Positions 27,591-39,285 of a stretch of DNA of 64,000 bases are shown piece by piece. The notes under the pieces were generated by a model. It was not told where the DNA came from. It ran no database searches and saw nothing but the letters and a program-made list of their open reading frames with translations. The stretch lies in the NCBI RefSeq assembly GCF_056746865.1, contig NZ_CM163382.1; one strand, written 5' to 3'. Both the position numbers and the translations under genes were made by a program. Each line of letters starts with the position of its first letter. Position 1 is the first letter of the stretch.

Positions 27591-27805
27591 AAAAACTTTA
27601 TGTTCTTCGGCGGCGAGCGCAGTGCACTGTTGTATGGGCTTATCGGCACTTGCCTTCTGAACGACATTGATCCGGAAGCGTATCTGCGCCATATCCTGAG
27701 CGTACTGCCGGAATAACCTTCCAACCGTATTGATGAACTCCTGCCATGGAACGTAGTTCTCACCAATAAATAAGCATCAATATGATTCTCCATTAACGCT
27801 TACCT
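27590..27805 (+). mobile_element. IS66-family right-end fragment (3' end of tnpC plus terminal repeat)
   Basis: encodes ...LLYGLIGTCLLNDIDPEAYLRHILSVLPE*PSNRIDELLPWNVVLTNK; ends in CGCTTAC (reverse of the GTAAGCG IS66 terminus). Confidence 0.55.
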
Positions 27806-27911
27806 TTTCTCAGGCTATTTTTGCTTTTTTTTGCTTTTCCCCGCCACTTTATGGTGATTATCACATCAATATACATCGATAGATATTAACGTAACTGAAG
27901 TGAGGTGAAGC

Positions 27912-29126
27912 ATGAAATTTGAACGCCATCATGAAATATTGAAACGACTCAGTAAATTCGGTTCTGTAAAAGTATCCGATCTGTCCAATAGCCTCAATGT
28001 AACGAAAGAAACTATTAGTTCAGATCTTAATGAACTTGCCAGGCTTGGCTATCTGACTCGATGTCATGGCGGTGCTTTTATCGTCCTAGACTCGCTTGAT
28101 ACTATTGCGAAAAATGAAATCGCTTATGCGCTTGAAAATTATGATACAGCCCAGGGAATAAAAAAAGGCCACTCAACTATGAAAAGTCAAGTATGCGTTA
28201 TTGGTTCGTTTAATGTTGATATCATCAGTTATTTGCCGAGGCTTCCCACTATCGGAGAATCGCTTCTGGCAAGTAATTTTATATTTTCACCGGGGGGAAA
28301 AGGCTGTAACCAGGCGCTGGCAGCAAGCTTTGCCGATACTGATGTTTATTTCATAACAAAAGTAGGTACAGATCACTTTAGTGATTATGCGATCAACTTT
28401 ATGAATTCGTCTAAGATTTATAAAAGTATAATTTATCAAACGAAAGAAACGCAAACCGGAACTGCCACGATCCTTGTTAATGAAGGTACTGGCGATAATG
28501 TTATTGCGATCTATCCCGGTGCCAACATGACAATGTCGTCCGATGAAATAACTATTCAGAAAGAAGCGATTATTAATTCTGATGTCATACTTCTGCAGCT
28601 CGAAACAAATTATACCGCTCTGCAACAAGCGATCACATTGGCGCAAAAAAACAGTATCCCGGTCATTATTAACCCGGCACCCTATAATGATATCGTCAAC
28701 GAACTTATTCAGGATGTTGATTATATCACCCCCAATGAAACAGAAGCTGGTTTACTGTCCGGCATAGACGTACACGATCTTGAATCAGCTAAACGAGCTG
28801 CAGAAGCTATCCACAATAAAGGGGTAAAAAACACGGTTATCACGCTCGGTAGCAAGGGCTCGCTCGCATTTGATGGCAAAAAATTCATTCATTCGCCAGC
28901 GTTTCCAGCGGTCGTTAAAAATACGGCAGGAGCCGGGGATGCGTTTAACGGCTCTCTGGCATCAGGACTTGCGAAAGGAAAATCACTGGAATCAGCACTG
29001 TGTTATGCCAGCGCCTTTGCATCCCTAGCGGTGGAGACAAGCAATGCTTCCGACATGCCTGAACATGAATCTGTGATACATCGAATTCAGAGTATACATT
29101 ATCAGCAAACTATTTTTACGCATTAA
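27912..29126 (+). CDS. DeoR-type HTH regulator fused to a PfkB-family carbohydrate kinase
   Basis: N-terminus SDLSNSLNVTKETISSDLNELARLGYLTRCHGGA (DeoR HTH); C-terminus with TPNETEAGLL and GAGDAFNG (PfkB signatures). Confidence 0.75.
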   Translation: MKFERHHEILKRLSKFGSVKVSDLSNSLNVTKETISSDLNELARLGYLTRCHGGAFIVLDSLDTIAKNEIAYALENYDTAQGIKKGHSTMKSQVCVIGSFNVDIISYLPRLPTIGESLLASNFIFSPGGKGCNQALAASFADTDVYFITKVGTDHFSDYAINFMNSSKIYKSIIYQTKETQTGTATILVNEGTGDNVIAIYPGANMTMSSDEITIQKEAIINSDVILLQLETNYTALQQAITLAQKNSIPVIINPAPYNDIVNELIQDVDYITPNETEAGLLSGIDVHDLESAKRAAEAIHNKGVKNTVITLGSKGSLAFDGKKFIHSPAFPAVVKNTAGAGDAFNGSLASGLAKGKSLESALCYASAFASLAVETSNASDMPEHESVIHRIQSIHYQQTIFTH

Positions 29127-29139
29127 GAAGGGACAGAGA

Positions 29140-29898
29140 ATGAATAACACCAAAAAATCACTAAAAGTGCTCTTTATTGGGGAATCCTGGCATATTCATA
29201 TGATTCATTCAAAAGGATATGACAGTTTTACCTCAAGTAAATATGAAGAAGGTGCGACCTGGTTACTCCAGTGTCTGAAAAATAGTCAGGTAGATGTCAC
29301 CTATATGCCAGCACATACGGTACAAATTGCCTTCCCTGAAGATGTGGCACAGTTAGAACAATATGATGCCATCGTTATTAGTGATATTGGTAGTAATACT
29401 TTCCTGCTACAAAATGATACTTTTTATCAGCTTCGCATAAAACCAAACGCTCTCGAACTGATTAAAGAATATGTGAATAACGGTGGTGGGTTATTGATGA
29501 TTGGCGGCTATCTCTCATTCATGGGAATTGAAGCAAAAGCCAATTATAAAAATACAGTTCTGGCTGATGTGCTCCCGGTTACGATGTTAGATGGTGACGA
29601 TCGTGTCGAAAAACCAGAGGGTGTTATTGCACAGCCATCACAACCTGAACATCCAGTTATTAAAGGGTTCTCTGAATATCCTTTTTTCCTAGGTTATAAC
29701 CGGGCGATCGCTAAAGAAAATGCTGAGGTGGTATTAACAATAAACAACGCTCCATTACTGGTCTTTGGTAACTATCACAACGGGAAAATAGCCTGCTTTA
29801 TGAGTGACTGTTCACCGCACTGGGGTACACAGCAGTTTATGTCCTGGCCGTTCTATACCGCGTTGTGGGTAAATATACTGACTCATATTGCAAGATAA
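29140..29898 (+). CDS. hypothetical protein, possibly class-I glutamine-amidotransferase-like (ThuA-like) fold
   Basis: 252-aa ORF 14 nt after the kinase stop; fold assignment is tentative, from memory only. Confidence 0.5.
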   Translation: MNNTKKSLKVLFIGESWHIHMIHSKGYDSFTSSKYEEGATWLLQCLKNSQVDVTYMPAHTVQIAFPEDVAQLEQYDAIVISDIGSNTFLLQNDTFYQLRIKPNALELIKEYVNNGGGLLMIGGYLSFMGIEAKANYKNTVLADVLPVTMLDGDDRVEKPEGVIAQPSQPEHPVIKGFSEYPFFLGYNRAIAKENAEVVLTINNAPLLVFGNYHNGKIACFMSDCSPHWGTQQFMSWPFYTALWVNILTHIAR

Positions 29899-29954
29899 TA
29901 ATAATAATGGGGTAACTCCAGTTACTCCATTTACTATAATAGAAGGATTGATGT

Positions 29955-30920
29955 ATGAAAAAGAATAAGTACTCAACTCCCTTATGGATGCTTGCCACGA
30001 TTCTTGCGGGTATGCTCTCCCCTATGCAATCAGCGGTGAATGGTCAATTAGGTCACTGGTTACAGGACGGTAATGCATGCGCAGTTATCTCCTTTGCCAG
30101 TGGTTTAGTCGTGATGTTTTTTATTATTATGGCGCGAAAAGAAACCCGGCAACAATTTGCGGCAATTCCTTCTCTGATTAAAAACCGAAAAGTTCCTCTC
30201 TGGAACTGGTTTGCCGGTCTCTGTGGAGCGATGGTGGTATTTTCTGAAGGCGCATCAGCCAGCGCACTCGGGGTCGCAACGTTTCAGACCGCACTGATCT
30301 CCGCGCTATTGCTGTCTGGTTTACTTTGCGATCGCTTTGGTATCGGTGTCGACGAGAAAAAATACTTTACCCCTTATCGCATCATCGGTGCATTATTTGC
30401 GGTTATTGCTACGATTTTTGTTGTGTCACCGCAGTGGCATTCTACCTCTTTCATTTTACTTGCCATTCTTCCGTTCTTAGCTGGTTTGCTTGCAGGATGG
30501 CAGCCCGCTGGAAATGCAAAAGTAGCTGAAGCTACGGGATCCATGCTGGTTTCAATCACCTGGAATTTCATCGTTGGATTTTGTGTTTTAGGCACAGCGC
30601 TAGCTATTCGTGTCGCATTAGGGCACGTCACTGTTCAATTACCAGATGTCTGGTGGATGTATCTTGGCGGCCCGCTTGGACTAATGTCTATCGGTTTAAT
30701 GGCCATTTTGGTCAGAGGTCTTGGGTTACTGATGCTGGGGGTTGCTTCAACGGCGGGCCAGTTACTGGGATCAGTATTGATTGACGTATTAATTCCATCG
30801 CTGGGCAATACCGTTTATCTGGTCACGATCATCGGAACACTGTTTGCACTGGTCGGTGCAATTGTTACCACTATTCCGGAATACAGAGCCTCGAAAACAA
30901 TGAAGAAAATGGAGGTATAA
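29955..30920 (+). CDS. DMT-superfamily membrane transporter (YdcZ/DUF606-like)
   Basis: 321-aa ORF, about 10 TM helices, internally duplicated halves. Confidence 0.6.
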   Translation: MKKNKYSTPLWMLATILAGMLSPMQSAVNGQLGHWLQDGNACAVISFASGLVVMFFIIMARKETRQQFAAIPSLIKNRKVPLWNWFAGLCGAMVVFSEGASASALGVATFQTALISALLLSGLLCDRFGIGVDEKKYFTPYRIIGALFAVIATIFVVSPQWHSTSFILLAILPFLAGLLAGWQPAGNAKVAEATGSMLVSITWNFIVGFCVLGTALAIRVALGHVTVQLPDVWWMYLGGPLGLMSIGLMAILVRGLGLLMLGVASTAGQLLGSVLIDVLIPSLGNTVYLVTIIGTLFALVGAIVTTIPEYRASKTMKKMEV

Positions 30921-30922
30921 TC

Positions 30923-31957
30923 ATGAAAGATTATCTACAAACTGTGACGGGCCCCGTCGCCCGTGAAGATATGGGGCTAACACTTCCTCATGAACATCTG
31001 TTCAACGATCTTTCCTCTGTTGTGGATGCTCCTTGCTATCCTTTTTCACAACGGCTTGTTGATAAAAAAGTCACGGCAGAAATCCAGTGGGCATTAAAAC
31101 ACGATCCTTATTGCTGCGCTGATAATATGGACCGCAAACCTATTGAAGATGTGATCTTCGAAATTAATAACTTTATCTCGCTCGGTGGTCGCACCATTGT
31201 TGATGCCACAGGGTCTGAGTCTATCGGACGAGATGCGCAGGCATTACGAGAAGTCGCATTAAAAACAGGTCTGAATATTGTTGCTTCCTCCGGTCCCTAC
31301 CTGGAAAAATTTGAAAGCCAGAGAATTCATAAAACGGTTGATGAACTGGCGACAACGATCGATAAAGAATTGAATCAAGGGATTGGCGATACGGATATTC
31401 GTGCCGGAATGATCGGTGAAATAGGTGTCTCACCGACATTTACCGAAGCCGAGCATAACAGCTTGCGGGCTGCCTCGCTGGCACAGATTAACAATCCTCA
31501 TGTGGCGATGAATATTCACATGCCGGGCTGGCTTCGTCGCGGTGATGAAGTACTCGACATTGTGTTAGGTGAAATGGGCGTCTCGCCAAATAAAGTCTCT
31601 CTCGCACACTCGGATCCGTCAGGAAAAGACGTGGCGTATCAGCGGAAAATGCTTGATAAAGGTGTCTGGCTGGAATTCGACATGATTGGCCTAGACATTA
31701 CCTTCCCGAAAGAGGGAATAGCGCCAGGGGTGCAGGAGACTGCCGATGCCGTCGCTCATCTCATTGAGTTGGGATACGCCGATCAGCTTGTTCTCAGCCA
31801 CGATGTCTTCCTTAAACAAATGTGGGCTAAAAATGGCGGTAATGGCTGGGGATTTGTTCCAGATGTTTTTCTGGCCTATCTGGCGGAGCGCGGCGTCGAT
31901 AAAACGATCCTCAAAAAACTCTGTATCGATAATCCCGGACGATTATTGACCGCATAA
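30923..31957 (+). CDS. phosphotriesterase-homology protein (amidohydrolase superfamily, Php-like)
   Basis: 344-aa ORF; metal-binding HEH at the N-terminus (LPHEHLF), later His/Asp ligands; start 3 nt after the transporter stop. Confidence 0.75.
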   Translation: MKDYLQTVTGPVAREDMGLTLPHEHLFNDLSSVVDAPCYPFSQRLVDKKVTAEIQWALKHDPYCCADNMDRKPIEDVIFEINNFISLGGRTIVDATGSESIGRDAQALREVALKTGLNIVASSGPYLEKFESQRIHKTVDELATTIDKELNQGIGDTDIRAGMIGEIGVSPTFTEAEHNSLRAASLAQINNPHVAMNIHMPGWLRRGDEVLDIVLGEMGVSPNKVSLAHSDPSGKDVAYQRKMLDKGVWLEFDMIGLDITFPKEGIAPGVQETADAVAHLIELGYADQLVLSHDVFLKQMWAKNGGNGWGFVPDVFLAYLAERGVDKTILKKLCIDNPGRLLTA

Positions 31958-31996
31958 AACCATTATCCCCCGGCACATTGCGCCGGGGGATGTCAA

Positions 31997-32335
31997 TTAA
32001 TACCCCGCCGTTAAATCATCCACCAAGCGCGAGTCGGATGCGCCGTACAACTCACCATCCGACCCAACCATAATGCTTTGCGTGCTGCCCATCGCCTCAT
32101 TCAGCGCCACTTTCTGACCTTTTGCTTCCAGCAGCTTGAGCGTATCCGGACTAAACCCTTTTCAACACGCAGCTCGTCCGGCAACCACTGATGGTGGAAA
32201 CGAGGCGCATTGGTCGCTTCGGCAACATTCATTCCACAATTGATGCTGTTCACCACCATTTGCGGCACGGTAGTGATGATCCAGCTACCGGTAACAAAGT
32301 GAGTACATAAAGGCCATACTGTCACGAACAGTGCA
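31997..32335 (-). pseudogene. ggt: gamma-glutamyltranspeptidase 3' fragment
   Basis: minus strand encodes ...TTVPQMVVNSINCGMNVAEATNAPRFHHQWLPDELRVEKG, then after a frameshift ...DSRLVDDLTAGY*. Confidence 0.7.
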
Positions 32336-32608: not shown

Positions 32609-33988
32609 TTAGGTTTTCAGAATACGGTAGAACTCGAGTACCAGTTGCTGCGCTATTTTCAACTCCGGTTCTTTTTCACACATCAGACTAATAAATCGGA
32701 AAGCATAATTTTCTTCACCCCTGATTATTCTCCAGGGCATCAACCAGCGGCTTACCCGTGACACTGAAGGAAGTCTTGCGGCAGTAGTAACCGGTGGGAT
32801 CCAGCCTTTATGCCATTTGGCAACAGCATCCCTGACGATGGTTTCACTGCCTGTAACCCCCCTGGCCACCATTTCCCGCCATATCCGGCCGGAGTTATAA
32901 TTACCACATTCTCGTTGCTCTTTTAACCACTCCCTCCATGGGTCCAGAAGCCCTCGCTTTGGAGGCCTGGTTGACATTTCAGGGAATGTTCCTGAACCCA
33001 CCCAGCGACTGACTGTCACTCGCGACAGGCCTGTAATACGGGATATTTCCCTGAAACTACATCCCTTGTTATGCAGGGCCATAACCTCTGTCCAACGCTG
33101 ATGCCGTTTTTTGCGGATGTGCTGTTTAAGGCGTTCCAGACGACGGAGCGATGCTACAGGCACAGATATTTCTGGCTCAGGTGATTTCTTCAGTGATAAC
33201 TCTCTGACAACAAGACGTATCAGAGGCATATGTCTGTACATCATTCGTTCAGGCTCATCACCAATATTTTTTAGCAGGTGCCATCGATCGGCCACCTGTC
33301 TGGCCTGAGGTGCACCTTCACGTGCTGCTGTCGCATAGACTCCACTGCGATCACGCGAGACAACCTGTATTTCCGGATATTTTCTGAACCAGGTCGCCAG
33401 CGTACGCTGATCACGGCCGGGAAGCAGGACGAGGGGACGGTGAGTATCAGGATTGACTATTAACATACCGCAGCAGTGGCCCCGATGCCACGCCCACTCA
33501 TCAATACCGACATGAGGCGCGCCTGACTGTTTCGTCTCCGGGGTATTGATAAGCCTGCGAAGAAGAGTATCAGCACTGCAACGGAGACCCACTGCCGTTG
33601 CAGCCCGTTTTCCAGCCTCACCTCCAGCTATTAATCCCAGTTGACGTTGTTAATTTTGTAACGCCTGTGAAGACTGCTGGTGTGAACTGGCGAAGGGAGC
33701 AAGCGACTCGGCAAAAATTTTACGTGAACAAGCCGGGTTACGGCAGTACCAGTGGCGGACGGAAAATACAAGCCATAGCGTCTGCCCTGAGCAGGGTAGA
33801 TGCTGTATCCGGCGCCGACGACAACTATGAACAGAGTCGCTACGCTTAAAGCATTCAGGACATTGTGCTGTTTTGCGTTTTCCGTGGAGATGGAGGGTTA
33901 TACCGTCAGAGCTAATAATTTGTCGACTGCATCGCCATCCGCAAGGTAACTGTAGAAGTGTCTTAAGAGAGTGCATTGCGTTGCCCAT
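32609..33988 (-). pseudogene. ISL3-family transposase, split by a frameshift
   Basis: ORF 33650..33988 has the zinc-ribbon N-terminus (LHLHGKRKTAQCPEC...HLPCSG...WYCRNPACSRKIFAE); ORF 32609..33592 has the DDE core (GIDEWAWHRGH...DRWHLLKN). Confidence 0.6.
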
Positions 33989-34271
33989 AACTTAAAACAG
34001 CTTAGATCCTTGTTCGCCAGAAAGTTTCATCCATTTTCTTCCACCCAGGTTGCGGAAGAACCACTTTTCATCCGTCGTTGACAGATGTGAAGTATGCGGG
34101 AGAAAAAGTGAATATCTAACTGTAATAACTCAGACCGGTACGAGTACTCGGGACGTCTACAATCATTCAGGGCAAAGTGCTAAAATTTCTCTATCCCGGG
34201 ATGCCCCTACCAACGCAGCACTCCCGGAGATATCATTACAGCTCTGCAACTGATTTCCGCGACTGAACCGC

Positions 34272-34679
34272 TCAGTTCCTATCCTTCCAGTTGCCCTCCT
34301 GCCCCCCCTCCCTGCTGTATACCCCGGTACCACAACTCGGGCAGCACTTTTCCCCCTCATAATTTTCGTCACACATCACACAAAACCACTTTCTCACCTT
34401 CACCGTATAATCCGGAACCGTCATACCCTGCAGATGCAAACGACGGGCCTCTTTCTCTGCCGGGTCAAGCCAGGTGCATCGCAGCAGGATTTTCTCAGCG
34501 ACAGTCATCTGGTCATGTTCAAACCACGGTGGTTGTCCGTCATTGCCCCGCTGAAGTGTTAACGGGCATCCACAGGACACACAGCACAAAACGTCCTGGC
34601 GGTTGTGCTTCGCTGCTTCTTTCGCCGTAACAAAATGGCCTTTGCTGTCATTCGCCATATAACAGTTCAGAATTCGCAT
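34272..34679 (-). CDS. Cys-rich hypothetical protein (paralog B of a tandem pair)
   Basis: 135 aa from ATG 34679 with AGGAGG RBS; same CxxC...PWFEH...CxxC layout; overlaps paralog A stop by 13 nt. Confidence 0.45.
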   Translation of the reverse strand: MRILNCYMANDSKGHFVTAKEAAKHNRQDVLCCVSCGCPLTLQRGNDGQPPWFEHDQMTVAEKILLRCTWLDPAEKEARRLHLQGMTVPDYTVKVRKWFCVMCDENYEGEKCCPSCGTGVYSREGGQEGNWKDRN

Positions 34680-35074
34680 ATTTCCTCCTGAGTTGTCCGG
34701 GGAATACTGAATCCTCCGGTCTGGCAGTGTGTGCAGTACCGCTCCCCATAATAATCGTGGTGACATTGTCTGCAGTGCCAGCTGGCTTTACGCACCACGG
34801 GTAAGGCATCCGGTACGAATTGCTGCAGACGTTTAATCAACTGTATTTCTCTGCGCTCCGGCCTGACATAAGGGCACTGTTGACCGTGCTCTGTCAGCCT
34901 GTCGTCAGTGTGTTCAAACCAGGGAAGTTCAGTGTCGTATTGCGGATGGTATCTGAGTGCACTGCCACACAAGTGGCAGGTGTAGTTAGCATAAGGTGCG
35001 GCCTGTGCAGTACGGGCGCCCGTCAGACGTCCGTTGCCATCAAGAGCGATAAAGGATTTTGCGTACATAGTCAT
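34667..35074 (-). CDS. Cys-rich hypothetical protein (paralog A of a tandem pair)
   Basis: 135 aa; CxxC...PWFEH...CxxC pattern; GAGGA RBS. Confidence 0.45.
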   Translation of the reverse strand: MTMYAKSFIALDGNGRLTGARTAQAAPYANYTCHLCGSALRYHPQYDTELPWFEHTDDRLTEHGQQCPYVRPERREIQLIKRLQQFVPDALPVVRKASWHCRQCHHDYYGERYCTHCQTGGFSIPRTTQEEICEF

Positions 35075-35327
35075 ATTCCTCAGCCGCCAGACGACACGCA
35101 GGCAACAGCCGTCCCGGTACGGGCAGCGTGGTCAGGGTGTGAATGGCGGTTCAGTTAAAATCTGGACTGGAGTTTGGGTAAAGCAGGCTGGTTGCTGTTA
35201 CAGCACTGTGGTTGTCACACAATGGAACACTGACGTAAAAAACAGTCAGTGGGCGAGTGGATACATCGTTGCCGCCAGACAACAACCCATACTTTTGGTT
35301 TGCCGGGTATTGGCGCGCCAGTCGTGC

Positions 35328-35897
35328 TCAACTCCGGCTACAGCCAAAATTGCGCTCACCGGTGCAGTGAGCTTTGGTATGTTCCTTCGCCAGATAGTCA
35401 GCACGTTCCAGCACCTGCTGAAAGCCAGTGTCATCATCGCGTTCCAGCCACACCGCCGGCCAGGCCGGGAAATGCACCAGCGTGGCATGGCACCCGACAT
35501 CCACTCCCAGGGCACTGCACCACGCCTGTTTAATCATCCCGGCCAGTGATCCCGGAGCACGGTAATCACCGGCACGACACCAGGTATCCCGGTTAACCAG
35601 CAGCATCAGGTGATAGTGTTTTTTACCTTTGCACTCCCCAAACTCCCGGGCCCAGACGTAATGCAGGGTTGTGGGATGCACGCGTTTACCTTCCCGATGC
35701 TTACGTTTCTGGTAAGCGTCGATTCGGGCTTTCAGGGCATTGATGAAGCGGGATATCACAGCTGCGTCCGTTGCTGCCGGTACATCCGGGAAACGCAGGT
35801 CAACCCGCAATGCCGTCAGGCGGGGATGAACATTCAGTGCGTGCCGCACCGTCTCACGAATACGTTGCTGCCAGAAGGGGTTGTATTTGTAGGTCAT
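35328..35897 (-). CDS. YagK/YfjJ-family (inovirus Gp2-like) protein
   Basis: ORF 35328..35933; likely start ATG 35897 (MTYKYNPFWQQRIRE) with GGAG RBS; family call from memory. Confidence 0.5.
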   Translation of the reverse strand: MTYKYNPFWQQRIRETVRHALNVHPRLTALRVDLRFPDVPAATDAAVISRFINALKARIDAYQKRKHREGKRVHPTTLHYVWAREFGECKGKKHYHLMLLVNRDTWCRAGDYRAPGSLAGMIKQAWCSALGVDVGCHATLVHFPAWPAVWLERDDDTGFQQVLERADYLAKEHTKAHCTGERNFGCSRS

Positions 35898-36093
35898 GGT
35901 TAAATCTCCGTATGGTTCATACGGAATAGCCACGTCGTAAAAAATGCGCAGAGTCCCTGAAGTGACCTCCGGCAGGACACTGTCTCAGGCACTCTGTGAT
36001 AACCCGAACGGTCGTCTCCGGACTGACGGTTGAATTTTCAGCGTTGTTTTTTTAATGTAAAAAACCGGTTACGGGTAAGGCTGTGAGGAGGGA

Positions 36094-36297
36094 GTGATGG
36101 TGATACGCAAAAAGAAGTGCAGGGACTGTGGAAACGCGATTACTCATAATACAGTGTGTTGCCCGTATTGTGGTTCTGTCGACCCCTTCGGCTATTACCG
36201 GAATACAGACCGTATCGTTACCATACTGCTGGCACTGATTATTGTGGTCCTGCTGACTACTGTCAGCGTCAGTGTGTATATACTGTGTAGCTGGTGA
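36094..36297 (+). CDS. small zinc-ribbon membrane protein (hypothetical)
   Basis: 67 aa; CRDCG...CCPYCG followed by one TM helix. Confidence 0.3.
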   Translation: MMVIRKKKCRDCGNAITHNTVCCPYCGSVDPFGYYRNTDRIVTILLALIIVVLLTTVSVSVYILCSW

Positions 36298-37423
36298 GAT
36301 AACGGTTCATGTATCCCCTGAGCTGACAGTGTACCGGGTATATTAAGCGTAACCGACAGGTTCTCCTTCATACCATATTAAATTTTTCCAGGTATTGCCG
36401 CTGCCTTATTTCGTCCCATACAGGAAAACTCGTCTGGGTTTCTGACAAATACGCGAAACTCACAGCCCCTCAATATCAACCACACGCTGTAAGCCGGTAA
36501 TACCTGAAAATCAGCCTATTACCGCCCGCGCCTCCGTTACCGAACGCTCAGGTGACCAGACTGAAGCCCAGCACGCACTCGTAAAATTTGCGGTCAGTTC
36601 CGTCAGTCAGTGGGCAACCGCAGAGTTACGGGCTTCCAGGTCCACAGGAGTGAGTCTATAACGCGTGTGGGAAATCATTTTTTCTGGCGTTGACAGAACG
36701 CCTTACGGGCTGCTACTTACCCGGTGTCCCGCAATACAGCCTTAGTGTTCCGTTATCGGGGATCCGGACGCACCGCAACAACCGGGGAAGTATTTCTGGT
36801 TAGAGCTGTGTCAAGAGGGATTTCTCAGCCCCTCACTCACCGGCTCAGTCTCAGGGCAGAAGCATTAATACACTCAGTTCATGTCTTATACAGGAATGGG
36901 CATAGGGGGAGCTGGCGTGTCACTGCTGATTTTACGCATCAGCGTTCATGTATCTGCACTCTGATACAGAATGCTTCACAGCGCTCTGTTACCGGAGAGA
37001 TTTACTCTCTTAGGTTATTCTGGCAAATCCTTTACGTTACTCTCTGATGACTTCTTATATTTATAATACCAATCAGACAACCTTATCCCATCGGTGATAT
37101 CAGTCTCCTGCTCGCCAGGAACGGGCTGACTCACTGTAACCACCTCCGAAAACAACTCTGCAATTATCAGAACGCCTGCTTCTCTCCCTGTCCTCACGAA
37201 AACTATCCCCTCTTTATCGCGCGTGCGTGCGGAAGCATCTTTTCGCAACCCCCCCCCCCGGGATTCCGCTACGGCTCTGCCATCGCAATCCCCCCGTTTA
37301 TCTCCGGACAGCCACATTCCCGATTATTTTTTACGTTTCTCCCCGGTTGTTATGCCGGTGAAGGTGGCGCGCTGTTTTCATGACCACACCGGCTGGTTTA
37401 ACAACATCCGGAGGAACATTCTC

Positions 37424-37630
37424 ATGGCTACCCCAGTTTCGCTGATGGATGACCAGATGGTCGACATGGCGTTTATCACTCAACTGACCGGCCTTACCGA
37501 TAAGTGGTTTGACAAACTCATCAAAGATGGGGGCTTTCCTGCGCCCATCAAAATGGGGCGCAGCTCCCGCTGGCTGAAAAGTGAAGTGGAAGCCTGGCTG
37601 CAGGCGCGTATTGCACAGTCCCGTCTGTAA
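37424..37630 (+). CDS. alpA: AlpA-family phage transcriptional regulator
   Basis: ORF 37223..37630; start ATG 37424 after GGAGG; 68 aa with MGRSSRWLKSEVEAWL. Confidence 0.75.
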   Translation: MATPVSLMDDQMVDMAFITQLTGLTDKWFDKLIKDGGFPAPIKMGRSSRWLKSEVEAWLQARIAQSRL

Positions 37631-37717
37631 TTTTTAACCACTAACCCTTCGCCCACAGCAGACGCAATCTCCGGCCTGCCGGCGGCGCTCTGCTGCCTGT
37701 TATCCCCCGTGAGGAAT

Positions 37718-38326
37718 ATGAAAATGAAACAACAGTATCAGACCCGTTACGAGCTGCTCCATGAAAACTACCAGAAATGGCTGACCGGCTTCACCCGGCA
37801 CGCCGTATCATGGGGCGTGTGTCATCCGAATATCTACTATTTCCATAATCTGACGCCCGGGTGGGTGTCATTCAATGGCGAAAAACCGGAGATTGCCATC
37901 GTTCCCCAGAGTCTGCACCGGCTGATTTATGGTCCGGACAAACGGAGCTCCCCGTCCCTGGATGATGATCTGGTGGTGAATTTATGCACCAGCGAACACC
38001 TGCTGGTTCATCATCCGATGCTGGAAGGGATCCTGCTGTCTGAATGTGAGCGCCTGAAGCAACATTCTCTGGCAAACAAACTGATCAGCCTCTTCCGTCA
38101 GTTTGGCGGCACGGAGTTACGTCTCAAACTGGTCTGGCTCTGCTGGCTTGACTTAATGACCGGAAACAGCCTTGACGACTGGACGAAAAACCTGAAACAC
38201 AAATCAGAAAAAGATCTGGAGCAATGGATCATTGCACGTCAGGGTCAGAGTGAACCACTGACAAATCTGATGGATCAGTACGTGCTTATGGCATACCGTA
38301 CATCGGTTGATGCCGCTCACAGTTGA
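37718..38326 (+). CDS. hypothetical protein
   Basis: ORF 37709..38326; ATG 37718 after GAGGA; no recognised domain. Confidence 0.45.
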   Translation: MKMKQQYQTRYELLHENYQKWLTGFTRHAVSWGVCHPNIYYFHNLTPGWVSFNGEKPEIAIVPQSLHRLIYGPDKRSSPSLDDDLVVNLCTSEHLLVHHPMLEGILLSECERLKQHSLANKLISLFRQFGGTELRLKLVWLCWLDLMTGNSLDDWTKNLKHKSEKDLEQWIIARQGQSEPLTNLMDQYVLMAYRTSVDAAHS

Positions 38327-39285
38327 TGTCTGAGAACCACAGGGCTGGCAGCAGAAAACCAGCCCTGTGGTAAAATACAGTAATAGCGGCGTACATCAGG
38401 CACGCCGCTCACTCGTCCACAGATCATATACGTCATTATACTGCGCGATAACGGAGGGCTTCAGCACCCGGTCATTTCTGAGCGGGTATGAATACCATTG
38501 ATGATGCGAAGCAGCCACGGGCAGAAACGTTCTTCACAACCAGGTGCCTCCATCTTCACTGCAGTCTGAATGTGCCGGCTTGTTATCCACCAGAAATGGT
38601 ATGCTCCGGTACATGCATACCCCGGAGACTATAAACGCACTGAATCATAGCCTCCCACCTCAGCAGGAGGCAGTCAGCTTTCAGGCGGAAAAACGTTGCA
38701 GTTAAAGATCGTGAGAATCGCTGTTTCGTTGCATAGCAACCCGAACAGTTGTAGTGAAACATTTTACCTGCATCAGCACATGGTCAGGCGCCGTCTGTAT
38801 GGCGTGGAATACTGATGTTTCGGCTGATGGCAAGCCTCATTCTCTGTGGAAACAGGGGCGCGCATTAGCTTCTCAACCAAGAGAGTGTCACAAAGACAAA
38901 TATTGCTGAAAATCGCATTCATCGTTCAGGCGTGAATGCCCGGAGACAAAAGCCGCTGTCCACACAGTCCCCCTCTGACCTGAACAAAAAGCATACACAC
39001 AACAGGCTCACCTGACCCCGAAAAACCATAACTTCAGCAATACCAGTGACACCAGCACGTTACCTCAGTGCCACATCTTCAGACCGCGATCAATCTGAAA
39101 TGTGACTATCGGGGCAATATCCCTGCTTTGTGGTACACGATAACCAGAAAACATCCCCTGAACCGCCAGCCAGAAAGACTGGCCACAAAAGGGGTAAGCT
39201 GAAATCGTTTATGGATTACATCGACATATGCCTGGCAGAGAATGGTAAGCGTGCAGTGAGAACCGTATTGACGAAGTGAAGCTGG

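Follow-up and report, generated by a model that had tools for sequence, protein, structure and literature searches.

What do two small, cysteine-rich proteins, encoded by genes that overlap at their ends, contribute to a mobile island of Escherichia coli, and with what do they work? The question is raised by a gene pair at positions 34,272 to 35,074 of a 64,000-nucleotide (nt) stretch of DNA (RefSeq assembly GCF_056746865.1, contig NZ_CM163382.1), which as a whole is referred to below as the window. We call the upstream gene ZR-A and the downstream gene ZR-B, after the zinc ribbon (ZR) of their products, and cite other loci and proteins by L and P numbers. The original prediction for this locus had read the pair as consecutive minus-strand genes of exactly 135 codons each, overlapping by 13 nt and each provided with its own ribosome-binding site (GAGGA and AGGAGG), and had proposed that they encode duplicated zinc-binding proteins that are likely to act as a heterodimer, such pairs often being regulators or anti-defence factors in mobile islands. 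The overlap (read as 34679-34667) and both ribosome-binding sites are indeed located in the sequence. What we add is that the ZR family is tied to YagK/YfjJ-family proteins with HUH motifs, both through a gene order conserved in numerous genera and through a conserved gene fusion in Serratia.

Although the original prediction did not recognise the family, both proteins clearly belong to Pfam DUF7828 (PF25165; residues 4-89 in each, E 2.8e-31 for ZR-A and 7.7e-31 for ZR-B) and to Zn_ribbon_11 (PF11682, formerly DUF3279; E 1.3e-09 and 7e-18, respectively). In thousands of genomes the Prokaryotic Genome Annotation Pipeline (PGAP) annotates them as such, under the names ‘putative zinc ribbon protein’ and ‘zinc-ribbon domain-containing protein’. 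When 39 family members were aligned, DUF7828 was matched in all of them and Zn_ribbon_11 in 37, and the residues C33, C36, F53, H55, C68, W98, C100, C103, G109, C113 and C116 (ZR-B numbering) were invariant or nearly so. This pattern implies a predicted CCHC zinc site in the N-terminal domain (C33/C36/H55/C68) and a predicted C4 zinc ribbon in the C-terminal domain (C100/C103/C113/C116). The zinc-ligand motifs already noted in the duplicated pair are thus conserved across the 39 members, and zinc binding is the predicted consequence. An AlphaFold2 model of ZR-B, with a mean predicted local distance difference test score (pLDDT) of 87.9, has two small domains linked by a helix.

The family, defined by DUF7828 plus Zn_ribbon_11, is small and restricted to Enterobacterales: it comprises 261 clusters at 50% identity among 1.84 billion proteins, and a Foldseek search of AFDB50 with the ZR model returned family members only, all from Enterobacterales. 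The best match of the family profile in a sequence search of the PDB had an E-value of 3.2, Foldseek found nothing at E<=1e-3 among the viral predictions of BFVD, and an NCBIfam scan of ZR-A and ZR-B gave no matches. Our literature search on the DUF7828/DUF3279 zinc-ribbon family found no functional study and no paper that mentions it. Many UniProt entries of the family (for example A0A6N8N922, B7MMF4 and B7LG76) bear the name ‘DNA-directed RNA polymerase, beta subunit/140 kD subunit’, which looks like a propagated mis-annotation.

That the two genes are paralogs, as had been proposed, is confirmed by pairwise alignment (31% identity over 118 residues, E 3e-15). The CxxC...PWFEH...CxxC arrangement described for both proteins is part of a common layout, CxxC...(P)WFEH...C followed by WxCxxC...CxxC. 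Orthologs of the A type are 53-65% identical to ZR-A and about 30% identical to ZR-B, while those of the B type are 43-49% identical to ZR-B. The A-then-B order with an overlap is found in Serratia, Hafnia, Superficieibacter, Yokenella, a metagenome contig and Klebsiella plasmids; the overlap is again 13 nt in L006, L007, L008, L018 and L022, and 10 nt in L005 (Serratia oryzae). Since order and overlap are kept across genera, the duplication is old, and both copies have been retained together with their translational coupling, which would fit a joint action of ZR-A and ZR-B. Many relatives are single-copy.

The gene next to the pair, K1 (‘inovirus Gp2 family protein’), had been called YagK-like, and it matches Pfam YagK_YfjJ_C with an E-value of 1.3e-47 (residues 33-199) and REP_ORF2-G2P with 6.2e-05. 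Its H94-Y95-H96 and Y168-L169-x-K171 motifs are invariant in an alignment of eight diverse YagK proteins (8/8). In HUH endonucleases, motifs of the H-Y-H type bind metal and those of the Y-L-x-K type carry the catalytic tyrosine. Judged by these motifs only, K1 would be an HUH-type, nicking-enzyme-like protein; run against the sequences of the PDB, the YagK profile retrieved no solved homolog.

The co-occurrence of ZR genes with YagK/YfjJ-family genes, which the original prediction had put forward as a check, was found in every locus with enough upstream sequence, namely the window, L003, L006-L009, L011-L013 and L022. In all of these a YagK-family gene with the same orientation as the ZR gene is found within approximately 700 nt of it, usually together with a gene for an AlpA-family protein, and this includes the distant single-copy relatives L003, L011, L012 and L013. 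The same linkage is seen in genome loci of Hafnia, Superficieibacter, Yokenella and Lelliottia; a profile search of genome contigs with a narrower ZR alignment had yielded seven loci.

The two families are also joined within single polypeptides. P0198 (454 amino acids, aa) and P0232-P0236, five Serratia proteins of 466-468 aa that are 45-52% identical to it, consist of a complete zinc-ribbon unit and a C-terminal domain of about 320 residues, the unfused form of which is a 324-aa protein. This domain matches the adjacent YagK protein (BLASTP 5e-23) and the YagK profile (hhalign probability 92.6%, E 4.7e-7), and it lacks the HUH histidines. Because the fusion is conserved across species, we regard it as good evidence that ZR and YagK-like proteins are likely to work together physically. 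The fusions are from Serratia spp., and the one in L003 (2797-4161) lies beside a 350-aa YagK protein that keeps HYH.

The fullest module, in which all genes are co-directional, is found on a Klebsiella plasmid (NZ_CP110517.1, 73958-77356) and reads YagK, AlpA, ZR-A, ZR-B (with the 13-nt overlap), an ‘inovirus-type Gp2 protein’ that we call K2, and DUF2913. K2 is a YagK paralog (Pfam UCP030791) that lacks the HUH histidines, as does the C-terminal domain of the fusions, and it directly adjoins the zinc-ribbon genes in L006-8, L018, L022 and L015. In L013, cargo in the form of a type I restriction-modification-like system begins right after the ZR gene. As the ZR genes stay with AlpA and YagK while the adjacent cargo varies between loci, they appear to be backbone, not cargo, of AlpA/YagK-type integrative islands and of some large plasmids.

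In the window the pair lies, as had been proposed, in a mobile island, which is of the CP4-44 type and situated between cobU and yeeA, with AlpA and an ISL3 remnant nearby; a YfjP-like GTPase, dynamin-like and patatin-like proteins, an antirestriction gene, yeeS, yeeT and cbeA/cbtA are encoded on the same island. K2 and DUF2913 are absent after position 34272 of the window and from the other E. coli loci inspected, in every one of which an ISL3 or IS66 insertion sequence (IS) abuts ZR-B. With an ISL3 remnant in the place of K2 and DUF2913, the module in the window is therefore truncated.

From this combination of family membership, ligand conservation, synteny, fusion and an old duplication we favour, tentatively and with less than even confidence, a role for ZR-A and ZR-B as nucleic-acid-binding or adaptor partners of YagK-family HUH-type proteins in the processing of island DNA. 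The ZR proteins would join YagK-family proteins physically as nucleic-acid-binding or adaptor subunits, and the partnership would act when the excised island DNA is nicked, replicated or mobilised. Following the duplication, translational coupling would yield ZR-A and ZR-B in a fixed ratio, and both would act together. The proposal supposes that the proteins bind zinc and DNA, that they interact with YagK, and that they take part in replication or mobilisation. A bolder version, which we consider rather unlikely, would have ZR-A and ZR-B as the DNA-targeting subunits of an unrecognised machine, centred on an active HUH nickase (K1) and its inactive paralog K2, that replicates or mobilises the very common ‘CP4-like’ (AlpA/P4-integrase) islands of Enterobacterales. 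If true, such a machine would explain how islands that encode neither phage nor conjugation functions manage to persist and spread.

CP4-type islands, whose genes include those for adhesins, toxin-antitoxin pairs and defence, belong to the most frequent accessory DNA of E. coli; a candidate module of YagK, ZR-A, ZR-B, K2 and DUF2913 could help to explain their replication or movement. CP4-44 of E. coli K-12 has lost the ZR part of the island, and the lack of the module at this site of K-12 may account for the absence of study.

Known systems offer partial parallels. The role proposed for the ZR proteins resembles that of the accessory DNA-binding proteins of HUH relaxases and rolling-circle Rep proteins (relaxosome or origin-recognition auxiliaries), small proteins encoded next to an HUH-type enzyme that aid it in locating or processing its DNA site. 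Both the coupling of the genes and the fusion with a YagK-like domain agree with such a role. Known HUH accessory proteins are, however, mostly of the ribbon-helix-helix or helix-turn-helix type, whereas the ZR proteins are predicted double-zinc proteins.

A second parallel concerns the N-terminal domain. The ligand pattern of the competence protein CoiA, which we take to be CxxC, about 15 residues, (W/H)F(E/A)H and C, is the same as that of the N-terminal ZR site, and the predicted CCHC site faintly resembles the CoiA N-terminal zinc finger. Pfam CoiA_N (PF25164) was matched at E<=0.1 by 9 of the 39 aligned members, the best at 1.3e-3 and ZR-B at 0.35, all below the Pfam thresholds; DUF7830 gave a further sub-threshold similarity, and both are remote. 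Foldseek found a weak match (E 0.23) of the ZR model to a phage ‘competence protein’. The CoiA N-terminus has been described as the putative zinc finger of a nuclease needed to resolve transformation D-loops (bioRxiv 10.1101/2024.02.06.579203). The ZR proteins differ from CoiA in having a C4 ribbon instead of the PD-(D/E)XK nuclease domain and the CoiA C-terminal region. They are not members of the CoiA family; they have no PD-(D/E)XK match in Pfam and end after the C4 ribbon (133/135 aa).

Several points weigh against a partnership in DNA processing. We found no report of nicking activity for YagK/YfjJ proteins in the literature searched, nor an experimental report on any member of the ZR family. 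The ZR proteins are near-neutral (isoelectric point about 7), in contrast to typical non-specific DNA binders, and their likeness to CoiA_N lies, as mentioned, below threshold. The E. coli module, lacking K2 and DUF2913, may be incomplete or inactive. Between E. coli variants, ZR-A has 3-4 non-synonymous changes and 0 synonymous ones, numbers too small to reveal constraint. A linked AlphaFold2 model of both proteins (A-GS30-B, paired/block alignment) gave no confident complex: the predicted template-modelling score (pTM) was 0.38 and pLDDT was 73, with no gain over the monomer, in a calculation that used a shallow alignment and a monomer model and provided no interface score. The heterodimer of the original prediction is consistent with an A-B order and overlap conserved in at least five genera, but is unproven.

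The alternative that survives best, though we judge it unlikely, is that the pair are island transcription factors, activators or repressors comparable to Ogr/Delta, that control genes of the island or of a helper. Like the ZR proteins, Ogr and Delta, the late-gene activators of P2 and P4, are small zinc proteins of mobile elements of the P4-integrase/AlpA type, and P4 Delta comprises an Ogr-like unit duplicated in tandem, which by analogy may be compared to the tandem ZR genes. Small zinc-finger proteins encoded alongside an AlpA-family regulator would suit this role, as would the conservation of about 90 nt upstream of ZR-A, a possible regulatory region, in a spacer that otherwise diverges. 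However, neither ZR-A, ZR-B nor any of the 39 aligned members matches the Ogr_Delta profile, and no other transcription-factor family of Pfam is matched; the ZR proteins have two distinct zinc sites and another domain layout, and they are absent from phage genomes. The conserved fusion partner is a YagK-like domain, not one that binds DNA or RNA polymerase. Also, there are no iterons or operator-like repeats around the ZR genes, where a repeat search found only short two-copy matches and the repeat that encodes WFEH.

A more sceptical explanation is that in E. coli the pair are functionless leftovers, hitch-hiking with a widespread, decaying island whose module was cut by an IS insertion. The ISL3 or IS66 element next to ZR-B and the loss of K2 and DUF2913 in every E. 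coli locus inspected would be expected in such a case, the surrounding island is full of pseudogenes, truncated and mosaic ZR copies are common, and the substitutions in ZR-A, none of them synonymous, point the same way. This has to be set against the distribution of the genes. The pair is catalogued, annotated and common, with identical RefSeq proteins, and many complete genomes match a 1.9-kb stretch around it at 100% identity. Of 5,426 complete E. coli genomes, about 3,800 (about 70%) carry the pair or the trio with the YagK-like gene, with a median of two copies per genome, nearly all of them chromosomal; the family is also present on 32 plasmids, mostly large Klebsiella plasmids. About 3,000 complete genomes have both ZR open reading frames (ORFs) and the YagK gene in intact form, and 2-4 copies are frequent. 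The ratio of non-synonymous to synonymous substitution rates (dN/dS) among E. coli variants is 0.17-0.28 for ZR-B and 0.08-0.18 for the YagK gene, and all zinc ligands as well as both ribosome-binding sites are kept. We consider it quite unlikely that the pair is without function.

A role in defence or anti-defence is improbable. The island carries antirestriction, toxin-antitoxin, dynamin-like and patatin-like genes, and the type I restriction-modification-like system of L013 directly follows the ZR gene. Against this, no PADLOC match at E<=0.01 was obtained for ZR-A, ZR-B, the YagK-like protein or the neighbours tested, and no PHROG match for ZR-A or ZR-B; the family had no homolog in 50,697 phage genomes (tblastn) and no significant structural match among viral proteins, and its gene stays with the AlpA/YagK backbone while the adjacent cargo changes. 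We found no evidence for the original notion of regulators or anti-defence factors: matches in PADLOC, PHROG, NCBIfam and phage genomes, and significant ones among viral structures, are all lacking, and the context points to the partnership with YagK. Finally, we reject the idea, to which we give practically no weight, that a frameshift has broken one gene into ZR-A and ZR-B: the ORFs do overlap in different frames, and single long ORFs with extra family domains exist (P0082, 238 aa, is an example), but each has the full architecture of DUF7828 plus Zn_ribbon_11, and a start codon and Shine-Dalgarno sequence of its own, and other genera likewise have two separate genes with this 13-nt overlap.

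The arrangement of the genes is given in Table 1. The 13-nt overlap suggests translational coupling of ZR-A and ZR-B. A transcript of yagK, ZR-A and ZR-B would have a candidate promoter in a sigma-70-like match ahead of the YagK-like gene, and no terminator-like site was found on the minus strand between the three genes; these are weak hints that they may form one transcript. An Rfam scan of positions 33000-39000 gave no matches.

Table 1. Features of the ZR locus. Positions are those of the window unless a locus is named.
Feature	Position	Strand	Remarks
ZR-A, upstream paralog	34667..35068	-	DUF7828 + Zn_ribbon_11; 133 aa from the conserved start; identical to WP_000270974.1
ZR-A, longest ORF	start 35074, stop end 34667	-	135 aa
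ZR-B, downstream paralog	34272..34679	-	DUF7828 + Zn_ribbon_11; 135 codons + stop; identical to WP_001221623.1
Stop/start overlap of ZR-A and ZR-B	34667..34679	-	13 nt, ATGCGAATTCTGA, read from the sequence
Shine-Dalgarno sequence of ZR-A, GAGGA	35077..35081	-	8 nt before ATG 35068, 2 nt before ATG 35074
Shine-Dalgarno sequence of ZR-B, AGGAGG	34684..34689	-	4 nt before ATG 34679; within the ZR-A coding sequence
WFEH-coding 19-nt stretch of ZR-B	34516..34534		repeated in ZR-A at 34911-34929, 84% identical
YagK/YfjJ-family gene K1	35328..35897	-	‘inovirus Gp2 family protein’, 189 aa; YagK_YfjJ_C match; HYH and YLxK motifs
Sigma-70-like promoter match	36034..36061	-	TTTACA, 16 nt spacer, GAAAAT; precedes the YagK-like gene; consensus match only
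AlpA-family helix-turn-helix gene	37424..37630	+	divergent here, within the module in other genera; 71% identical to the Klebsiella plasmid AlpA
ISL3-family transposase pseudogene	32609..33988	-	PGAP, internal stop; ~280 nt after ZR-B, where other genera have K2 + DUF2913
K2 + DUF2913 after the ZR pair	L022 7493-8741; L006 10405-11650		Klebsiella plasmids and Hafnia

The length of ZR-A requires a comment. Its most likely start is the second ATG (35068), giving 133 aa, and not the first (35074), because PGAP picks this codon, because ZR-A orthologs in other genera start with MYAKSF, because the E. coli variant L016 lacks the first ATG, and because the spacing of GAGGA to the second ATG is 8 nt, as opposed to only 2 nt for the first. 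The equal length of 135 codons thus holds for ZR-B and not for ZR-A, and is a coincidence of start choice. The C-terminal cysteine of A-type proteins was considered as a further zinc ligand and rejected, being a by-product of the overlap with the ATG-CG start of ZR-B. The spacer between the YagK-like gene and ZR-A measures 259 nt (35069-35327). The approximately 90 nt of it that adjoin ZR-A are conserved among E. coli variants, and a small hairpin, CCCG-TAC-CGGG, lies within them; the distal part is replaced in L016, where it is 94 nt shorter.

Many database variants (P0039, P0040, P0023, P0031) are mosaics that switch paralog type at WFEH, and the 19-nt repeat that encodes this motif is a likely crossover point, the change in P0039 and P0040 being exactly of this type. 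The mosaics suggest recombination between paralogs or, alternatively, assembly chimeras in short contigs. In several genera, partial extra zinc-ribbon ORFs precede the pair or the single gene (L005 6-182; L006 9318-9449; L007 9309-9440; L008 9319-9450; L013 3477-3797), a hint of a third, decayed tandem copy.

A few neighbouring features are worth recording. Between the YagK-like gene and AlpA, a 67-aa ORF (36094-36297, plus strand; WP_001297900.1, ‘hypothetical protein’) has an N-terminal CxxC...CxxC followed by a hydrophobic helix, with a weak PHROG match (phrog_38187, 1.6e-5) and a sub-threshold rubrerythrin-like match. The gene that always follows the AlpA-like gene in E. coli loci encodes a hypothetical protein of about 200 aa (WP_000813432.1, 37709-38326, plus strand), which has no match in NCBIfam, PADLOC or PHROG and one relative, in L010. 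In L011 (78-1301, minus strand) and L013 (437-1666, minus strand), a gene for about 408 aa is divergent from the AlpA/YagK/ZR module and occupies the place where an integrase might be expected; it has no clear Pfam match, apart from a weak one to RepB-RCR_reg in one case. On the other side of the pair, the cargo at approximately 27800-32325 resembles the yhfS-php region (PfkB kinase, glutamine amidotransferase, DMT transporter, phosphotriesterase-related protein) and is followed by a gamma-glutamyltransferase fragment and the ISL3 pseudogene; the same block lies beside yaiO, a second chromosomal site, in another strain.

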